Origin: a virus
Direction: 5' to 3' (one strand)
DNA length: 64,000 nt
UHGV virus genome: UHGV-1370141
The notes under the pieces were generated by a model. That model was not told the origin of the DNA. It worked only from the letters and a program-made list of their open reading frames with translations, and made no database searches. The position numbers and the translations under genes were made by a program. How positions within the stretch are numbered: the first letter of the stretch is position 1; every line of letters begins with the position of its first letter. Below, in pieces: positions 3,582 through 40,515 of this stretch.

Positions 3582-5686
3582 TTCATCCTCTGGCGTTGGA
3601 GAAGCTCTCTCAAGCTTTCCATTGACGCCACGTTTTGTGTATCAGTGTTAAGTTGAGAGATGAGGGCCTGAAGTCGGTTACGAGCGGCCATTGCTTGAAC
3701 CGGGTCGAGTAACCCGTGAGTCGTTCTCACTAACTGCTCAATTTCCCCCATCAGTTTTTGCTGTCGCGCTTCCTCTTCGAGCTGTAACTCTTCGTCCACC
3801 CCTTCCCGGTTTTCTGCCAAGTTACGATTACGCATCATCAATCGGCTGTTGTTGATCTCGTAATGTCCTAAGTTATTCCCAAGTAGCAATAACCACATCG
3901 CAAGTAACCAAGAAATCACAAGGTCATCGTGACCGGATGCTTTGTGGTCGATACGACCATTTTTCTCCACGAGGTTAAGAATTTGGTCGATGAGCTCTCC
4001 ACAACGGAGTTTATCGGCAGACAAGCGCAACGCGGTGGTGAATACCTCACCGTACAGTTTACGACGTTTCTCCTGGTCGGTTGAGAACCCGATGTATTTG
4101 CGGAATTTATTCCAGAATTTCTCTGCGCTCCCCACTGGGCCACGGTGATACTCTTTGTAGAGATCGTCCGTACGCGAGTAGTCCTGGGTGATTCGCACAA
4201 ACAAACGACGGTGTAAATCGGGTACCCGTGATTGCAATTGCAGGATAACCGCATCTGCAACGGATGAGCCTGTTGAGCGTCGTTCCAGAATCAGTACCGT
4301 GTTCGGATATCGCACCATAAAATCCGCTAAATGGATCGCGAACGAAATAACGTTGGATTCATTAACGGTAAGCTTACCGGCGTACTCGGCCGTGACTGAG
4401 TTGACGATGGACATGGCGATCGCATCTCGACCTACGGCTTCGGAGGTATCCAAACCGATGACATGACGATCTTTGAGTTTCATCATCATTTCTTCTTCGG
4501 TGTAGTACCAGTCGGTAACGTAGTTTTGTGGCGAGATATCTTTGAACACTGCACGCATTCGTGAAGCATTCATACGATCTGCATCTTCCGCTGAGAACGG
4601 CTTGTTCAGACCACCGGTCGTCCATTCGCCACCGAAGTCACGACGGATCTGGTCAGGGGTACCTTTGGCGTTCGCAATCATTGCCGCTAACTGTTCATCT
4701 GTGGTCCCGAGCTGACGGTGGTTGTACTTCACGTAGAACATGATACGTGGGACTTCTGCCGTGGAGTTAGAACGGATGATGTCAATGAGCTGTTTACGGG
4801 TTGGAATGTCGATATAGCGCTCATCCCACATAATCCCTGACGTCATCAGCTCGTACATGTACTTGCCTTCTTCCGTCGCTAAGTCACCAGGGGTTGTTGC
4901 GAATACGTTACCGTAAGGAACACCTTCCGCTTCGTTAATACGACGTGCCGCTGTACCGGATGCCAGCGCTGCCGGTAGAATGTGGTGTACGTTTTTGGTA
5001 AAGGGGCCTTCGTCCGAGAACAGACGACCAGCAGTAAGTCCACGACCGATACCGTTAGCGGACTCTGGGTCGTTTTGGCCGATACCTGTAATCAGTTTAT
5101 TACCCTGAGCTAAACACGCAAAGGTTTCTCGGTTATCTGGGTCATCAGGATGCGCTGGCCAGAGGTAACTCGGTAAACCGTTACGAAGTTGTTTCAGTTT
5201 GTTGATAGTTTCTTCACGCAGTGCCGGGCCTTTTGTGATAAGAATTGTTCGGGAGTTTTCTAAGAAACGAATCAACCACAGCAGTAAACCACTCATCCCG
5301 ACGGTTTTACCGTGCTGACGCAAGAACTCGACAGCAACGTCGATGTTGTTAAAGAAAATCCAGTACATCGAGAAGTTACCACGGTCGATACGGAACGGGG
5401 AACCGTACTTCATACCGTCCGCAGGCACCCTGACACATTCCCTGAACCAGTACCACGGGTTCTCAGCACATTCGATGGCGATGTATGCCTTCATCTGTTC
5501 TGAAAGGTTTTCATCGAACGGGTCTACGCCCTGCAACAGTGGGTTATGCAACGCCAGGTGAATATACCAGTGTTTGACACCCAGTTTTTTCAGTAAGTTA
5601 GCAAACTTGATAAAGGATTTGTTTGTTGTTTTATCGTCAACAATAGCGCCTGGATAATAACGCCAGTCCGATTCACGTAGTATCAT
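3578..5686 (-). CDS. terminase large subunit (ATPase plus nuclease), 702 aa
   Basis: Walker A-like FLRQHGKT; C-terminal RNase H-like nuclease motifs VIGLDTSEAVGRD and GHDDLVISW; ATG with AGGAG SD. Confidence 0.6.
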   Translation of the reverse strand: MILRESDWRYYPGAIVDDKTTNKSFIKFANLLKKLGVKHWYIHLALHNPLLQGVDPFDENLSEQMKAYIAIECAENPWYWFRECVRVPADGMKYGSPFRIDRGNFSMYWIFFNNIDVAVEFLRQHGKTVGMSGLLLWLIRFLENSRTILITKGPALREETINKLKQLRNGLPSYLWPAHPDDPDNRETFACLAQGNKLITGIGQNDPESANGIGRGLTAGRLFSDEGPFTKNVHHILPAALASGTAARRINEAEGVPYGNVFATTPGDLATEEGKYMYELMTSGIMWDERYIDIPTRKQLIDIIRSNSTAEVPRIMFYVKYNHRQLGTTDEQLAAMIANAKGTPDQIRRDFGGEWTTGGLNKPFSAEDADRMNASRMRAVFKDISPQNYVTDWYYTEEEMMMKLKDRHVIGLDTSEAVGRDAIAMSIVNSVTAEYAGKLTVNESNVISFAIHLADFMVRYPNTVLILERRSTGSSVADAVILQLQSRVPDLHRRLFVRITQDYSRTDDLYKEYHRGPVGSAEKFWNKFRKYIGFSTDQEKRRKLYGEVFTTALRLSADKLRCGELIDQILNLVEKNGRIDHKASGHDDLVISWLLAMWLLLLGNNLGHYEINNSRLMMRNRNLAENREGVDEELQLEEEARQQKLMGEIEQLVRTTHGLLDPVQAMAARNRLQALISQLNTDTQNVASMESLRELLQRQRMK

Positions 5687-7376: not shown

Positions 7377-9893
7377 TTAACCCTTGATTTTCAGATACTG
7401 GTTCAGCTGAACTTCACCGTTCAGGTACCGTTCGTTTACGCGGTCTAAGAACGCAAAACCGAGTTCGTTGATTTCCACCGTCTCGTATTTGACGTGTGGG
7501 TGGAGTTTGACGAACGCTTTATCGTAGCCGATATACGCCGGGTCGAAGGGAAGCAGATCTTTGTAACGTTCCATGATCTCATCCAACTGAGTCGTTGAGA
7601 TACGGTAGTCAGGATCGTCTTCTCGCAGGATTAAAATACCGTTTAGGTAATCCCACATGATTTTGTTCAGTGTCGGCGAATACAGGTGGTATAAGTGCGG
7701 TAGCGGTACCGGGTTTTCAGGCGGTGGTGTTGGGAACCAGTGTGTCATGTAATTCTCAACACGCGTGTCCAGGTCTCGGGCAACGTCACGCAATTCGTAC
7801 GTGTCCCCGGTGACCATCGTCAGTAACGGGATAGTCGGGTCGTCAACCGAGTACGGATAACCGTCGTCAACGATATTGACCCCAACGGTGTTGTCTTCAC
7901 GGAACACCACTTCATCACGCAGCAGTAAAGAACCGCCAGCCACAACACGAATGACTTTGTCATCACGACAATCGAATTGGCTGTTGTTAGACAGTAAGCC
8001 ACTGGAGACAAACCCGTGTTTCGGTATACGCAGCATACCCGTTACTCCACGGCAGCGTACGGCGATATGGTTGTCTTCGTCGTCACTTACCCAGGACTTA
8101 CACACCACGACGATTTCAGGCCAAATAACGTGATAGTCGATACCGTGTACCAGCGGGTGGCCGTTTAACCACACTTCAACGGTTTCCATCGGAATCCACA
8201 GCGTACGCTGGTTCCCTTCCTGGTTACGTGCCATAATCGGAATACGGATTTCCCCTTCCCGTACTGCAAAGGTGGTCTCGAAGAACAGATGACGGTCGTC
8301 GTAAATCACCGTTGGATGACGTCGCGTTCTGTCTACCGACCAGGTAATCTTGTTCCCGTCCCGTTCGTAGTCCGTCCCTTCTACCGCTTCGATATACTCG
8401 TCACGAGGAATATCGTCAATGACTTTACGTAACCAGAGGTTAACGTTTTCACCTTCGTTAATCACGAAGTCATCGGCGTTATCGACAATGGTCACCGCGT
8501 CGTCTTTTGCCCCCGCAATCGCTTCGATAATGCGTGCGTTGGGATTACGAGCTTGGTAAACGTCATAACCTGTGTTTTGATGCGCCTCTAACAGTAAACC
8601 ATCACCGTCGTATTCGTATACGGTGGAGTTAACCGCCAGTAACGCAGGGAGCGTTGCACGATAACCACCTTCGGTTAAGGTCAGGCGCTGCGGTGTGTCA
8701 GCTGCGTAACGCGTAACGGCATTATAACCGTAAGCGTCAGTGCACAGGTCACGGTTAATGTTTTCCAGCTTAGCCGCAGCCAAACGGTTAAACGCAGCCT
8801 GTTCTAAGTTAGCCGCTTGCCACTCCGTTACGTTGGCGTTAGCGCCAATCATCGCGTCGATAATCAGCTCGTCAGTGAGACGATACAAATCGTGGACGTG
8901 GGACGAGTTATACAGCGGCGTAATGTCCAGATAGTCGTCACGGATAATAAGACGAATGACCAGTTCATCTAAGTCGGTGATAGACTCGTTAAAGACATTA
9001 CGGTATTTCGCAATGCGTTCAGTCGGGATTGCCAAATCGTTCCACGTTAGCTGACGCATCGCCTGGTGACGATGACGGTGGTAATAACGACCGCGACCTT
9101 TCCAGAACAGCTGAATTTCGGCGTCGTTGTTGAAAATCCAAATCCCGTCTTTTTTCGGAATGTGGAGCAAATACTTACGCTTGCTGTCGAGCGTAGACAT
9201 AAACGTCGGTAAGTCGCCACAACGGAATTCAACGATGCGGCGTACACGACCGTCAACACGAATGTCGATGTCGTCCCAGACTTTAATGTCTTGCGTTTTC
9301 GGTGAGTCGATTAATTCACCGTTTAACCAGAACTCAACGTAACCTTTATTCTGTTGCTTAAGTAGGTTATACCGATCGACGACTCTCTGAACCTGTTCGC
9401 GGTTAGGCGGTGAGAAATACTCAACGGTGGTTGGGTTAATATACGGTGCGTTTTCACCCCCACTGTAACCCGGATAAATTCGCAGGTAGCAGATGTCTTC
9501 TTCTAACCAGCTATAGCGATCGGATTGTGGGATAGCCATGTAAACCATCCCAGAGCTGGTGCGGTAAAAGTAGACGTACTCAGAGGGGATCGAAACTCCG
9601 CTCTCGTTGTAGACCAGCATCCAGGTACTGAAGCCGTTCACACACGTTGAAAGCTTCTTCCAACGGTTTAGGGGGATGGCTAAGTTCCCCCAGTTTACGT
9701 GAAGTTTATCAATAGCGAATGCGTGCCACCAGGTATTTTCTTTCGGTAGCGCTACCGGTGTCCGACCGTGTTTGAAAAAGCCGATCGCCCCGGTCTTGGG
9801 TGAAAGACGGAAGGGTGCAATGTTCAACACCCCGTCGAGATATGGACGCTGCCACGCTTTTTGGATGGCGTGGGCGACCAGCCAGTTCTCCAT
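7377..9893 (-). CDS. hypothetical protein (838 aa), possibly virion structural
   Basis: Long ORF tightly packed with neighbours. Confidence 0.6.
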   Translation of the reverse strand: MENWLVAHAIQKAWQRPYLDGVLNIAPFRLSPKTGAIGFFKHGRTPVALPKENTWWHAFAIDKLHVNWGNLAIPLNRWKKLSTCVNGFSTWMLVYNESGVSIPSEYVYFYRTSSGMVYMAIPQSDRYSWLEEDICYLRIYPGYSGGENAPYINPTTVEYFSPPNREQVQRVVDRYNLLKQQNKGYVEFWLNGELIDSPKTQDIKVWDDIDIRVDGRVRRIVEFRCGDLPTFMSTLDSKRKYLLHIPKKDGIWIFNNDAEIQLFWKGRGRYYHRHRHQAMRQLTWNDLAIPTERIAKYRNVFNESITDLDELVIRLIIRDDYLDITPLYNSSHVHDLYRLTDELIIDAMIGANANVTEWQAANLEQAAFNRLAAAKLENINRDLCTDAYGYNAVTRYAADTPQRLTLTEGGYRATLPALLAVNSTVYEYDGDGLLLEAHQNTGYDVYQARNPNARIIEAIAGAKDDAVTIVDNADDFVINEGENVNLWLRKVIDDIPRDEYIEAVEGTDYERDGNKITWSVDRTRRHPTVIYDDRHLFFETTFAVREGEIRIPIMARNQEGNQRTLWIPMETVEVWLNGHPLVHGIDYHVIWPEIVVVCKSWVSDDEDNHIAVRCRGVTGMLRIPKHGFVSSGLLSNNSQFDCRDDKVIRVVAGGSLLLRDEVVFREDNTVGVNIVDDGYPYSVDDPTIPLLTMVTGDTYELRDVARDLDTRVENYMTHWFPTPPPENPVPLPHLYHLYSPTLNKIMWDYLNGILILREDDPDYRISTTQLDEIMERYKDLLPFDPAYIGYDKAFVKLHPHVKYETVEINELGFAFLDRVNERYLNGEVQLNQYLKIKG

Positions 9894-9903
9894 AGTGGAC
9901 CTC

Positions 9904-10809
9904 TTACTGGATATTTAAGGGTTTGGTATTCTGGTTCAGTAATGTATCGTAAGCGATGGTAAACGCATCTTTACGTTTTGCTACGTCACATTTCTTAATC
10001 AGCCCACCCAAACGTGAACGGTTGAACACCGAGTTTTCTAAACAGGTGCGGACAATCACAAACAGCGATGGCGGATATTCGATGGCGCTCGTTACCAACT
10101 GGCGGTCGTAGCTGATGTAGCTGCCTAAGCTGGTCGCCAGCATTGACTGCAAGCTAACCACGCTCAGTTCATTAAGACGTGGGATGCCTGCTGCTTTAAC
10201 CATCTCAACGAATTCACCGATATTACGCGGGAACAGAAACTCGGTATTACCGGTGACGGTTTCGAAAAACTGTGGCGAAAGTCGCAGTTCACGTTCCAAC
10301 TGCTGCTGCATACGCAGCATTTTTACTTCATCTTCGAAGTTGTTATAGAACTGTCCTACGGAAAACAGCGCTGCGAGTGCCTTGACTTGACCGCTTTGAT
10401 ATGGAGCAAGTGCATAGGTGTGTTCAATCGCATCGCTAATCCACCTGCTGAAGATCTCATGGTGATAAGACATTCGGGCCATCAACGCACCGAGCTTATC
10501 ATTGTTCCGTTTCCACACTAATTCCCAACGTGCTTCGTCTAGACGTAATTGGTGCTCAATGGGGTTACGAATTTTTAACTCGCCGTTTTTATCGAGCGTC
10601 GTAAAAGTTCGTGCGTCAACGTACACGTCATCACCAATGACGATAGGTAACGGGAACGGTTTTACATCGGCTGTTTCGATAACGTAATGGACTTCTTCAG
10701 ACTGAGCAACAGTTTGGTTAACCTTACGAGCCAATTCCAAGTCCGCGTGTAAGCGGGTAAGGTCTATGGTATTAAAGGGAGTGCCGTTGTAAGCGTTTTT
10801 GAGTGCCAT
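9904..10809 (-). CDS. hypothetical protein (301 aa)
   Basis: ORF with ATG start; divergent from 10872 (+). Confidence 0.55.
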   Translation of the reverse strand: MALKNAYNGTPFNTIDLTRLHADLELARKVNQTVAQSEEVHYVIETADVKPFPLPIVIGDDVYVDARTFTTLDKNGELKIRNPIEHQLRLDEARWELVWKRNNDKLGALMARMSYHHEIFSRWISDAIEHTYALAPYQSGQVKALAALFSVGQFYNNFEDEVKMLRMQQQLERELRLSPQFFETVTGNTEFLFPRNIGEFVEMVKAAGIPRLNELSVVSLQSMLATSLGSYISYDRQLVTSAIEYPPSLFVIVRTCLENSVFNRSRLGGLIKKCDVAKRKDAFTIAYDTLLNQNTKPLNIQ

Positions 10810-37528: not shown

Positions 37529-37560
37529 ACCTACCTCCTTTCGGAGGTAGGTACTTTTAT
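37529..37560. terminator. bidirectional intrinsic terminator (stem acctacctcc / ggaggtaggt, loop tttcg)
   Basis: Same stem sequence as terminator at 13825..13851; flanking A- and T-runs. Confidence 0.65.
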
Positions 37561-38391
37561 TTATTTCGCCAAATCTGCTTCTTTTACAAAAATACCGTCA
37601 GCGTTCAGATAGCCTTTACGGTCTTTGATTTCGTGCCAGGCTAAAGAGAAGCAATGGCGAATGTCAAGACGATAGTAGAGAGCCAGTTTTGCAAGACGGT
37701 ACAAAGCCCAGTTAAGCTGATCGAAACCAGCATCGGAGCGAATAAATGCGGTAGCGAAGATTTCGGTAGCGTGGAGATACAGATGGTGCGGATACCCGTT
37801 GTCATCAAAATGTTCTTCAACGTCAGCGACATCATCCACCTGTAGCTGTAAACCGTGCTCGATGATCTCGGTGGTTGACATTTCTCCAGACAGTTTGTCT
37901 TTACCCAGTTCCAGGATGTTTACCAGAACCACTAACGCATCACCGATACCATCCATGATCAGTTCAGGTTTGTTTTTACTGATACCTGTTGCGATTTCAC
38001 CAAACTCTTCAAAGAATTTCGTGATTTGGGTTTCCAGTTTACCGTTATCGAGGATGCCGCGTTCTTTAGACCAGCCTTTAACATGTTCTGCACAGTTCGC
38101 AATAGAATAGACCGGAACCGATACGGTGTGCATTACTGTACCGTTATATTCGGCACCTGTAAGTTTAAGCGGCGCTTCAATCGTTTCGATGTCCAGTTCC
38201 TGATTACCGGTGTGGCGTTTACCTTCTACGCGAACACGGTTAGTACCAGGATTTACCCCGATGGTGTAGATAGCATCAAACTGAATCGCTTTCTCGTCCA
38301 TAGCGCGTAGTTGTGTGTTAACTTCGTCCAGGAAGTTACCTGGGTTAAGAACGATGTTGTAGATAGCGTTGATGTTAAAACGTTCGCCCAT
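37561..38391 (-). CDS. MazG-like nucleotide pyrophosphohydrolase domain protein (276 aa)
   Basis: C-terminal half has MazG-like helical pattern (EEFGEIATGISKNKPELIMDGIGDALVVLVNILELGKD) with acidic metal-binding residues. Confidence 0.4.
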   Translation of the reverse strand: MGERFNINAIYNIVLNPGNFLDEVNTQLRAMDEKAIQFDAIYTIGVNPGTNRVRVEGKRHTGNQELDIETIEAPLKLTGAEYNGTVMHTVSVPVYSIANCAEHVKGWSKERGILDNGKLETQITKFFEEFGEIATGISKNKPELIMDGIGDALVVLVNILELGKDKLSGEMSTTEIIEHGLQLQVDDVADVEEHFDDNGYPHHLYLHATEIFATAFIRSDAGFDQLNWALYRLAKLALYYRLDIRHCFSLAWHEIKDRKGYLNADGIFVKEADLAK

Positions 38392-38419
38392 TTTAAAACT
38401 CCATTAGATTAAACAAAAA

Positions 38420-38454
38420 AAGAATAAAGATTAGGGGTGCTACATAAGCACCCC
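38420..38454 (-). terminator. intrinsic terminator (stem ggggtgct / agcacccc, U-run on minus strand)
   Basis: 8-bp stem directly downstream of small ORF 38463..38606. Confidence 0.5.
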
Positions 38455-38462
38455 GTGAACTG

Positions 38463-38606
38463 TTAAATTTTGCAAGCCCCGCCTGAGCAGTTATCGTCTT
38501 CCGTAGTTGGGTCAGCACCCTTCTCTACGGTAGCTTCCGGGTCTAAGCCAGGGATTGCAAATTCGTCAGTTTCTTTAACGGTTTCTACTTTAACTTCTTC
38601 AGTCAT
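38463..38606 (-). CDS. small acidic peptide (47 aa) ending in Cys-containing CSGGACKI; translationally coupled to upstream small ORF
   Basis: Hand translation MTEEVKVETVKETDEFAIPGLDPEATVEKGADPTTEDDNCSGGACKI; ATG overlaps upstream TGA (ATGA); terminator follows. Confidence 0.35.
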   Translation of the reverse strand: MTEEVKVETVKETDEFAIPGLDPEATVEKGADPTTEDDNCSGGACKI

Positions 38607-38827
38607 TTTTTAGTTTCCAAATTTCTTACAAAGGGGTTAATAGTTTTGATTTTAAGGTTAGCGAACGGCGACAGAAGTTTCACCATCGGTGCTAGACCTG
38701 GCGGCGTCTCTTTATATCGCACGATGCGCACTTTCGATTTACCAGGACCCTTACGTACACGGTTGTAGCCAATAAAATATAGAGCACCTGTAAAGAATCT
38801 CAGGCTGTGAAATCGTGGTTTTTTCAT
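38603..38827 (-). CDS. small basic protein (74 aa)
   Basis: In ORF track; start overlaps stop of upstream 49-aa ORF (TGATG); shares RKGP.K motif with it. Confidence 0.4.
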   Translation of the reverse strand: MKKPRFHSLRFFTGALYFIGYNRVRKGPGKSKVRIVRYKETPPGLAPMVKLLSPFANLKIKTINPFVRNLETKK

Positions 38828-38976
38828 CAGACATCCCCAAAAGCCAGAAAGCGTTTACGACCCTTGTGTGGTCCTTTACGCCAGCGACTAGCGATAGTTT
38901 TACGATTTACTTTGCAACGGATTCTCTTATTCAGATTGATATACTTTATAGTAACTTTAATGACATCATTCGTCAT
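38827..38976 (-). CDS. small basic protein (49 aa; MTNDVIKVTIKYINLNKRIRCKVNRKTIASRWRKGPHKGRKRFLAFGDV)
   Basis: Hand translation; below 60-aa track threshold; GAGGG SD upstream; coupled to the 74-aa ORF. Confidence 0.35.
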   Translation of the reverse strand: MTNDVIKVTIKYINLNKRIRCKVNRKTIASRWRKGPHKGRKRFLAFGDV

Positions 38977-38997
38977 AAAGAATTCCCTCATCATTAA

Positions 38998-39444
38998 TTA
39001 ACCCATTAAATGGATTACAACGTCTTTAGTTACTGAGTTTGCAAGTAAGCGGAAGAACTTCATGTAACGGAACATGCTAAAGAAAACCCCAGCGTCATCT
39101 ACAATGACAAGGCTGTATTTTTCCTTTTCTGTACCCATTTGGTAACCGCTGATTTGTGTGATGTTTTCCGGTAAGTCTTCGAGACCCAAACGGAATAGCA
39201 CATCGTCCTCTAAGAACCCTTTTGGGCTAACGAACAACACTTTCCCTTTATGGTTCTTAGCTAACTCGACACCAAAGTCTGTAAGCCCCATCTGCCTACC
39301 TGTACCGTAGCGGATAGTACGAAATTCAGATAAGGCATTGGGACCATAACGATCGGTAAACGGATTATCTTTAGAATCCAGATCGGTTAAACCTTTTGAT
39401 AATTCTTCTACTACGATGTTATAGTTAACATGAGTTTTAGACAT
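38998..39444 (-). CDS. hypothetical protein (148 aa)
   Basis: ORF directly downstream of thymidylate synthase gene. Confidence 0.5.
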   Translation of the reverse strand: MSKTHVNYNIVVEELSKGLTDLDSKDNPFTDRYGPNALSEFRTIRYGTGRQMGLTDFGVELAKNHKGKVLFVSPKGFLEDDVLFRLGLEDLPENITQISGYQMGTEKEKYSLVIVDDAGVFFSMFRYMKFFRLLANSVTKDVVIHLMG

Positions 39445-39474: not shown

Positions 39475-40515
39475 TTATACTGCGACGGGGGCCGCAATAT
39501 GTGGATGAGCTTGATAACCAACTAATTCGAAGTCTTCGTATTTGTAATCGAAGATAGAATCCGGTTTACGTTTGATAACCAGTTTAGGTAACGGGTAAGG
39601 CTCACGTGTAAGTTGAAGTTTTGCTTGTTCCAGATGGTTAGAATACAGATGAACGTCTACACCACTATAAACCAACTCGTCTGGAACCATGTTCAGTTGT
39701 TGAGCAACGATGTATGTTAACAACGCGTACGAAGCGATGTTGAACGGTAAACCTAAGAATACGTCGTTTGATCGCATCAGGAAGAAACACGAAAGCTTAC
39801 GACGCGGAATACCTTCACGATCTAAAGTTTCATGAAGTCGTTCTTCATCATCAATATCTTCGTGTTTAATAAGCGGTGCGCTCGCAAATTTTTCCGGTTC
39901 GTTTACTTCGTACCATTCCAGTCTCTCAAGCAGTGACATTTCCGTTGTGTAGAATTGGAAGTAGTTGTGACACGGGTTAAGTGCCATATCGTCCAAGTCA
40001 CTTACGTTCCAGGCACTAACAATAATACGGCGGGAGTCAGGGTCTTCGAGAAGTTGTTGGATAACTTTGCTGATCTGGTCGTGAGATTTGCGATAAATAA
40101 CGATACTTTCTTCAGGGTTGTCCTTTGCAATAGTACCAACGTAGCGATAGCCTCGTTCTCTCAATACGTCTTTACTACGCTCGTCCCAAAGATAAACCAG
40201 TTTGGTATCCATCCATTCCCGCCACTGGTGTCCGTAGACAGGTCCTAATTCCCCTTCCGCATTCGCCCACTCGTTCCAGATTCTTACCCCATTCTCTTGC
40301 AGGTACTTCACGTTAGTGTCACCGTTCAAGAACCATAACAGTTCATGAATGATACTTTTCAGGTGAACCTTTTTCGTAGTAACTAATGGGAAACCTTCTT
40401 TCAGGTCAAAACGTAGTTGGCGACCAAATACAGAAAGTGTCCCTACACCTGTACGGTCTTTCTTAACAACGCCGTTATCCAGAATGTCTTGCATTAACGC
40501 TAAATACTGTTTCAT
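39475..40515 (-). CDS. thyA: thymidylate synthase (ThyA family) with two insertions, 346 aa
   Basis: MKQYL...[12 protein letters not shown]...FPLVTTKK...[12 protein letters not shown]; [13 protein letters not shown]; active-site [10 protein letters not shown]; [16 protein letters not shown]; [30 protein letters not shown]. Confidence 0.9.

Follow-up and report, generated by a model that had tools for sequence, protein, structure and literature searches.

A phage-encoded peptide resembling the C-terminal redox tail of host ribonucleotide reductase at a nucleotide-metabolism locus of a jumbo phage

What is encoded by the very small open reading frames (ORFs) that follow one another between the MazG-like and the thyA-adjacent genes of a jumbo phage, and what might the last of them, an acidic peptide with two Cys residues close to its C terminus, do for the virus? 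We addressed this question in a 64,000-nucleotide stretch of the virus genome UHGV-1370141 (called the window here), whose sequence places it in a jumbo phage from the group of SPN3US, CR5, and Erwinia phages. A preliminary description of the locus had reported three minus-strand ORFs chained by stop/start overlaps, RKGP motifs in the two basic ones (ORF-A and ORF-B), and the sequence CSGGACKI at the end of the third (ORF-C). All of these are present, with the sizes and overlaps as described. It had also likened ORF-C to the leader-plus-core precursor of a ribosomally synthesized and posttranslationally modified peptide (RiPP) or to a small metal- or redox-active peptide. The redox-active direction was right, given the match of ORF-C to the tail of NrdA, a subunit of the host ribonucleotide reductase (RNR), whereas the leader-plus-core reading is not supported. 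The features of ORF-C are as follows.

38463..38606, minus strand: ORF-C, an acidic peptide of 47 residues, MTEEVKVETVKETDEFAIPGLDPEATVEKGADPTTEDDNCSGGACKI
38466..38558, minus strand: conserved C-terminal module of ORF-C (residues 17 to 47), consisting of IPGLD, an 18-residue acidic spacer, a Cys pair, and Lys-Ile-COOH
38487..38489, minus strand: Cys40 of the module
38472..38474, minus strand: Cys45 of the module

Sequence comparisons identify ORF-C as a conserved, free-standing homologue or mimic of the C-terminal redox tail of host NrdA. ORF-C ends with EDDNCSGGACKI and Escherichia coli NrdA with QDDGCESGACKI, in both cases at the extreme C terminus. The C-terminal segment of the E. coli protein, VPSIQDDGCESGACKI, carries Cys754 and Cys759 in the arrangement C754-x4-C759-KI. 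This Cys pair reduces the active-site disulfide of the enzyme after each turnover, and thioredoxin (Trx) or glutaredoxin (Grx) then reduces the tail. The part played by alpha's C-terminal tail in RNR re-reduction is established (PMC11903788). The likeness of ORF-C to the tail of class Ia NrdA lies in the C-x4-C-K-I-COOH ending, in an acidic run before the first Cys, and in the Gly-Ala pair before the second, and the phage sequences are within the range of variants that occur naturally among Enterobacterales tails. In contrast, the phage peptide is not attached to the catalytic alpha/beta barrel of an RNR. The phage proteins that carry the module have 39 to 120 residues, in which it stands alone or is fused to unrelated small proteins, and an RNR domain is absent from ORF-C and its neighboring genes.

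A single-sequence phmmer search of the PDB with ORF-C returned only an ankyrin-repeat match, which is spurious, and a profile search was therefore needed. The profile was derived from an alignment of 11 representative jumbo-phage peptides (alignment A1) and was compared with 177,635 distinct PDB sequences. NrdA C termini made up 14 of the 15 matches and were aligned end-to-end with the phage profile. They comprise eleven full-length, 761-residue entries of E. coli R1, matched over residues 747 to 761 with E values of 0.036 to 0.037, the isolated 25-residue R1 C-terminal chain 1QFN_B (E = 0.07), and two other NrdAs (7mdi and 8vhp). When E. coli NrdA was used as a tblastn query, the peptide gene was the top match both in the window and in the complete CR5 genome, a match that is not significant alone.

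Tails of NrdA from 80 Enterobacterales species read ...DDGCE[SG]GACKI with a few variants. Erwinia phage Asesino gp255 ends in 12 residues that match the Rosenbergiella NrdA tail EDDGCAGGACKI at every position (12/12), the C terminus of Phobos gp116 reads GCESGACKL, and the identity between phage and host tails amounts to 8 to 12 of 12 positions. An ungapped alignment places the module on NrdA residues 731 to 761, such that the 18 residues from the Asp of IPGLD to the first Cys correspond to the distance from D736 to C754. The codons of phage and host tails share a nucleotide identity of only about 60 to 70%, and there is thus no sign of recent gene capture. Literature searches turned up no report of a free-standing RNR alpha (NrdA) tail in phages, and a full-text search for “GACKI” returned noise only. 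The novelty is the RNR redox tail as a separate virus-encoded peptide, the tail itself being already known.

The module defines a family that extends well beyond the window. Residues 13 to 47 of ORF-C match PHROG families 14561, 38753, and 24014 up to the ends of the profiles (E = 1.6e-15, 9.8e-15, and 2.4e-13, respectively). These families are unannotated and make no mention of NrdA. A Pfam search gave zero matches for ORF-A, ORF-B, and ORF-C. By tblastn, homologues of ORF-C were found in 81 phage records, the hosts of which are Erwinia, Salmonella, Escherichia, Cronobacter, or Proteus in all cases, and the family is restricted to phages of Enterobacterales. Residues G20, G30, D32, C40, G43, A44, C45, and K46 are invariant in A1, and the module follows the pattern ..IPGLD-x18-C-x4-C-K-[IL]-end. 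The D-18-C-x4-C-x2-end spacing is identical in 10 of the 11 A1 members, and C-x4-C followed by two residues forms the C terminus of all 11. The N-terminal parts of the family vary freely in length and sequence, with representatives of 39 to 97 residues.

A HMMER scan of 1.84 billion representative proteins gave 12 matches, namely, 10 small module carriers (39 to 120 residues) and two long repeat proteins, and revealed no fusion of the module to a known domain. The module sits at the extreme C terminus in nine of the 10 small proteins. The tenth, P0003 (78 residues, from a single ENA contig), is a frameshifted ORF-C variant without the Cys pair (…DDNCSVLTQLRK…) that probably reflects a sequencing error or a defective genome. 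In one uncultivated phage (L126, IMGVR_UViG_3300011862_000001, 9026..10093), the module is fused in frame to a protein of the Caitlin gp244 family (about 270 residues). The gp244-family gene is normally found two genes upstream of the peptide gene, and the intervening 150-residue gene is absent from this contig. The module tolerates unrelated N-terminal fusions, to ORF-B as well as to the gp244 family, as is expected of a unit whose role is that of a C-terminal tail. Short tail peptides of 36 to 49 residues also occur in unrelated smaller phages, i.e., TH32, L137 (about 9974..10120), and L142 (about 9989..10132). The member in Escherichia virus TH32 (L026, 2495..2614) has 39 residues and a C-x3-C instead of a C-x4-C motif.

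We compared 10 distinct alleles of the region, taken from metagenomic relatives whose contigs reach about 220 to 230 kb, to establish whether the three ORFs are coding. The two ORFs upstream of ORF-C are as follows.

38827..38976, minus strand: ORF-A, 49 residues, ATG start with a GAGGGA Shine-Dalgarno sequence
38603..38827, minus strand: ORF-B, 74 residues

The ratio of nonsynonymous to synonymous polymorphism (pN/pS) of ORF-C across the 10 loci is 0.088 in frame, whereas the two alternative frames give 2.4 and 42.7. For codons 1 to 43 of ORF-B it is 0.29 in frame versus 0.76 and 1.16 elsewhere, and for the C-terminal half of ORF-B it is 0.40 versus 0.68 and 1.7. ORF-A is represented by three strongly diverged alleles (pS of about 0.6), all of which are open and retain the sequences MYFEPK...R.RKGPRKGRKRF and R[WC]RKGP[HR]KGR[KN]RF despite their divergence. 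The low in-frame pN/pS of ORF-B and ORF-C and the preservation of open frames in the diverged ORF-A alleles indicate that all three ORFs are coding, and ORF-A, ORF-B, and ORF-C are real genes. A 47-codon ORF can thus be the most strongly constrained gene of its neighborhood. The expectation that the reading frames would be conserved in relatives held in this respect, but the trio is not a fixed unit, as ORF-A is missing from five relatives and ORF-B and ORF-C are often fused. The earlier concern was that default annotation would overlook such small ORFs, but they are not missed systematically, since public gene sets and GenBank entries of relatives do call them.

The genes around ORF-C point to deoxynucleotide metabolism. 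In the window, they are the following.

37561..38391, minus strand: MazG-like nucleotide pyrophosphohydrolase, downstream neighbor (phrog_7855, E = 2e-72)
38998..39444, minus strand: gene for a 148-residue protein (phrog_2586), homologous to Caitlin gp245, SPN3US gp033, and CR5_115 (E values of 1e-21 to 1e-41)
39475..40515, minus strand: thymidylate synthase gene thyA (PF00303, with a thymidylate synthase annotation in relatives)

The thyA gene is the upstream boundary of the nucleotide-metabolism block, to which relatives add genes for dTMP kinase, dihydrofolate reductase (DHFR), and dCMP deaminase. In jumbo phages, the peptide gene lies between thyA or the dCMP deaminase gene and mazG. In TH32, an unrelated coliphage of 69 kb, it adjoins a ThyX-like ORF (identified by eye only), and in uncultivated phages of about 60 kb (L142), it adjoins genes for a deoxynucleoside monophosphate (dNMP) kinase, ThyX, and a deaminase-like protein. 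On a contig of 154 kb (L137), it directly follows a dUTPase gene. The peptide gene was thus found in a deoxynucleotide-metabolism context in every case, in at least four phage groups. The gene order of the jumbo phages, [~270 residues]-[~150 residues]-peptide, is conserved, and no informative Pfam domain was found in the neighbor genes of the window and its relatives.

Carriers of the peptide gene appear to lack an RNR of their own, as judged from the three complete genomes that were examined (CR5, SPN3US, and TH32). Neither CR5 (223,989 bp) nor SPN3US (240,413 bp) has an annotated RNR, and tblastn searches of both genomes with E. coli NrdA, NrdB, NrdD, NrdE, NrdF, NrdG, NrdH, and NrdI gave nothing beyond the nonsignificant match to the peptide gene in CR5. 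No Trx, Grx1, or T4 NrdC was detected in the two genomes by tblastn with manually written query sequences. In TH32, the record of which is unannotated, tblastn likewise detected neither an RNR of class Ia, Ib, or III nor a Trx or Grx, and an RNR was present in 0 of 22 IMG/VR loci with 20 kb of context. Relatives contain a pair of proteins with radical S-adenosylmethionine (SAM) domains (CR5, 132830..134978, L014; SPN3US, 140024..142139, L036). The corresponding genes are located about 30 kb from the peptide gene in these relatives, and no homologues were found within the 64-kb window.

How might a detached tail act? On balance, we lean toward ORF-C being a viral, free-standing version of the NrdA tail that would tap the re-reduction of host RNR and thereby tune the deoxynucleotide supply. 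The data show that the ORF is coding, what its tail is, in which phages and gene surroundings it occurs, and that relatives have no RNR, whereas we infer that the peptide is redox active, which partners it binds, and in which direction it acts. The Cys40/Cys45 pair would cycle between dithiol and disulfide forms and be recognized by Grx1 or Trx1 of the host, by the active site of NrdA, or by both. It might exchange with the active-site cysteines of NrdA (Cys225-Cys462) or compete with the endogenous tail, so that the phage would gain access to the half-cycle in which host RNR is re-reduced. Acting in trans as a shuttle or adaptor, the peptide would sustain the output of host RNR for phage replication. 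This is the direction that we prefer, with a competitive decoy being nearly as likely. A role that supports the supply of deoxynucleoside triphosphates (dNTPs) is favored because the gene neighborhood is one of nucleotide metabolism, and the tolerance of fusion to two unrelated upstream proteins fits a unit that needs only a free C terminus. More tentatively, carriers that lost or never possessed an RNR may have kept only the mobile, electron-carrying arm of the enzyme. A peptide charged by Grx or Trx could feed host NrdA in trans, or it could couple NrdA to phage enzymes of dNTP synthesis, and in this manner raise or redirect the dNTP pools.

Known systems offer partial parallels to such a peptide. 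In PDB entry 1QFN, a complex of the isolated R1 C-terminal 25-mer with E. coli Grx1 (glutaredoxin-1), the tail alone is reportedly recognized by Grx1, and tail-only recognition is what a free phage peptide would require. The 1QFN tail is a synthetic fragment studied by nuclear magnetic resonance, whereas the phage peptide is made from a natural gene and has further conserved residues toward its N terminus. The yeast protein Sml1, like Spd1/Hug1, is a small disordered regulator of RNR that interferes with the R1 C-terminal tail. By analogy, the phage peptide would resemble these proteins in being small and disordered and in acting at the re-reduction step, but Sml1 shares no sequence relation with it, has no Cys pair, and serves as a cellular checkpoint target rather than a viral mimic. 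Peptides corresponding to the C terminus of R2 from herpesvirus and E. coli compete for the R1 binding cleft. They are likewise short free peptides that copy the tail of an RNR subunit and act on the holoenzyme in trans. In contrast, they copy the beta tail and block subunit association, while the phage peptide copies the redox tail of alpha.

Several points weigh against a trans-acting NrdA tail. The similarity to NrdA is short, about 12 to 15 residues, with profile E values of only 0.04 to 0.4, and the margin over database background is modest because of this shortness. Upstream of the last ~15 residues, the identity with NrdA is at chance level (3/19), and only the tail proper is therefore demonstrably related to it. 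NrdA contains nothing that corresponds to IPGLD, and the motif is absent from the distant members L137 to L142. A boosting role is not obviously effective for a free peptide in competition with a tethered tail of high local concentration. In addition, the absence of RNR is defined by annotation and by class Ia, Ib, and III queries, class II NrdJ not having been queried by sequence, and it applies to relatives and not to this genome, of which the 64-kb window was available.

The same tail-identity evidence applies equally to a decoy or inhibitor, a possibility that we place on the unlikely side. The mimic would titrate host Grx or Trx or occupy the NrdA active site, with the effect of shutting down host dNTP synthesis or host replication or of denying Trx to competing phages such as T7, in analogy to Sml1. 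Small peptides present in large amounts are natural competitors, a structure exists of the R1 tail as an isolated chain of 25 residues (1QFN_B), and, judging from its position as the last, translationally coupled gene before a terminator, ORF-C may be strongly expressed. However, the carriers have no RNR and also invest in the downstream enzymes ThyA, dTMP kinase, DHFR, dCMP deaminase, dUTPase, and dNMP kinase, so that blocking the sole de novo source of deoxynucleoside diphosphates would seem counterproductive unless the breakdown of host DNA suffices. It is less probable still that the peptide serves as a tail or adaptor for a phage protein, recruiting host Trx or Grx to the gp244 family, the 148-residue family, or ORF-B, in trans or as a fusion. 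Natural in-frame fusions to the gp244 family (L126) and to ORF-B (in many relatives) and the conserved [~270 residues]-[~150 residues]-peptide order of the jumbo phages would fit such an arrangement, and IPGLD with its fixed spacer suggests a second docking site. However, the candidate partners are mutually unrelated and each is dispensable, as the 148-residue gene can be deleted, gp244 is absent from the window, and ORF-B is truncated in L031 and L033. Furthermore, they contain no recognizable redox or catalytic domain, and the distant carriers TH32, L137, and L142 lack such neighbors.

The two remaining explanations appear far less plausible. A RiPP precursor, in which an acidic leader would be cleaved from a modified or metal-binding Cys core, would account for a small peptide with an acidic N terminus and two Cys close to its C terminus, and relatives do encode two radical-SAM proteins elsewhere in their genomes. 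Nevertheless, we regard it as highly improbable. As the preliminary description had noted, no modification enzyme is found nearby, the neighbors being thyA, the 148-residue gene, mazG, and the small basic ORFs, nor is there a maturase, protease, or transporter. Moreover, the pattern of conservation is reversed, with an invariant “core” across genera (pN/pS of 0.088 for ORF-C) and a variable “leader.” Large N-terminal fusions are tolerated, the end-to-end match to the NrdA tail is specific, and two Cys alone make a poor metal site. An equally slim chance is given to a nonfunctional relic, in which ORF-C would represent the 3′ end, now in decay, of an ancestral phage nrdA formerly located after thyA. 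This idea builds on the gene order td-nrdA-nrdB of phage T4, and it is in line with the position of ORF-C downstream of thyA and with the confinement of NrdA similarity to the tail. Against it stand the pN/pS of 0.088 and a start codon of its own, as well as the retention of the gene by six or more phage genera and by small phages that are unrelated. It is plausible that ORF-C descends from an nrdA in this position, and such an origin is compatible with a present function, whereas the label “nonfunctional” is not.

In dNTP synthesis, the re-reduction of RNR through the alpha tail is important mechanistically, and it is still poorly visualized. If ORF-C is a diffusible tail that works with, or against, host RNR, the peptide would represent a new viral control point over nucleotide supply in phages without RNR, including the well-studied SPN3US jumbo group. 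It could also serve, as it stands, as a probe of enterobacterial class Ia RNR and of the Trx and Grx partners of this enzyme or as a scaffold for inhibitors, and several PHROG families listed as “unknown,” with members in at least 81 sequenced phage records, could be assigned a function. A shuttle, specifically, would be the first case of a virus that encodes nothing of a host enzyme except its redox-shuttle tail, which would act as a diffusible cosubstrate. As a speculation on the remainder of the module, the acidic-aromatic residues that precede IPGLD (PMDFGDIPG in Asesino) might resemble the C-terminal tip of the single-stranded DNA-binding protein SSB or the tail of NrdB.

The three genes of the trio are chained by overlaps. 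The ORF-A stop and the ORF-B start share a single base (TGATG), and the ORF-B stop overlaps the ORF-C start by four nucleotides (ATGA). An alternative ATG at 38994, upstream of the ORF-A start, would give a 55-residue product. The calculated isoelectric points are 11.7 for ORF-A, 11.4 for ORF-B, and 4.05 for ORF-C. The state of the ORF-B/ORF-C junction is set by a homopolymer.

38606..38611, minus strand: A6 homopolymer at the ORF-B/ORF-C junction, in the context ACT AAAAAA TGA

In the alignment of the 10 loci, A6 occurs in the window, L005, L008, and L032, and A4 occurs in L027 to L031 and in L033. With A6, the ORFs are split, and with A4 or A7, they are fused, giving a single ORF of 120 or 121 codons in many relatives (P0005 to P0013). 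With regard to a possible programmed −1 ribosomal frameshift from ORF-B into ORF-C, the A6 run is followed by a stop codon at the junction, but relatives simply vary the run among A4, A6, and A7. A −1 slip on A6 before the TGA would re-create an A7-type fusion such as P0005.

ORF-A and ORF-B are a lineage-specific insertion upstream of ORF-C, as deduced from the fact that the 148-residue gene directly precedes the peptide gene in most jumbo relatives examined. ORF-A is a truncated allele of a lineage-specific family of 56 to 65 residues with the consensus MYFEPK..R.RKGPRKGRKRFQVIQ..YS..LE.NPFE. The family forms 27 clusters and is found on contigs of up to about 222 to 230 kb, with many members on short fragments. 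In the five relatives without ORF-A (L027, L028, L029, L032, and L033), the 148-residue gene abuts ORF-B, and ORF-A is a dispensable accessory gene with presence/absence polymorphism. The N-terminal core of ORF-B, MKKPRFHSLRFFTG.LYFIGYNRVRKGPGKSK.R.V.YKE, is conserved, and the truncations in L031 and L033 are due to indels. The 148-residue gene is dispensable as well, since it has been cleanly deleted in several close relatives by joining of its first 7 codons to its last codons (MSKTHVNG*, L005, about 4560..4600). The 148-residue family has no relative in the PDB and shows no similarity to NrdA.

A comparison of the two basic proteins with nucleic-acid-binding and ribosomal protein families had been suggested, but no such family matched ORF-A or ORF-B. 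Neither had matches in Pfam, PHROG, or the PDB, the latter having been searched with profiles. The RKGP motif that they share gave an hhalign probability of 11.5% over 14 columns, with the match limited to the RKGP loop, and their paralogy is unproven. AlphaFold2 modeled ORF-A as three strands with a basic loop between them, at a predicted local distance difference test (pLDDT) score of 62, and the natural B-C fusion at a pLDDT of 42. With low confidence, these models suggest that ORF-A and ORF-B adopt a beta-hairpin with an RKGP basic loop and a further strand. Foldseek searches with the ORF-A model returned nothing below E = 0.5. Our best guess is that ORF-A and ORF-B are accessory proteins of small size that bind to nucleic acid or to partners of acidic character, and ORF-B would be linked to ORF-C by translational coupling or fusion.

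The transcription unit of ORF-C appears to end before mazG.

38415..38454, minus strand: intrinsic-terminator-like hairpin and T-rich tract, GGGGTGCT-TATGT-AGCACCCC, that ends the ORF-C transcription unit before mazG

The hairpin, located 3′ of ORF-C (38454..38434), was detected by scanning and folding. It has an 8-bp GC-rich stem with a folding energy of −16.3 kcal/mol and a z-score of −4.1. The stem has another sequence in relatives, GGGTGCTT...AAGCACCC, in which pairing is kept. With 80% identity, the terminator stretch is the best-conserved DNA in comparison with distant phages. An Rfam scan of the ORF region found no RNA family.

At the other end of the block, thyA is one uninterrupted ORF of 346 residues in the window. 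An ORF resembling GIY-YIG/NUMOD3/I-TevI proteins separates two pieces of thyA in L029 (387..2505), and thyA is split or carries an insert in L028 (857..2170) and L126 (6502..8399). These interruptions look like a polymorphism of mobile introns and homing endonucleases, as in T4 td. On the far side of mazG, a palindromic hairpin (37529..37552), perfect over 10 bp and accompanied by T-tracts on each of the two strands, lies between the convergent mazG (minus strand) and a gene for a 187-residue DUF7941 protein (plus strand), and it is probably a bidirectional terminator.

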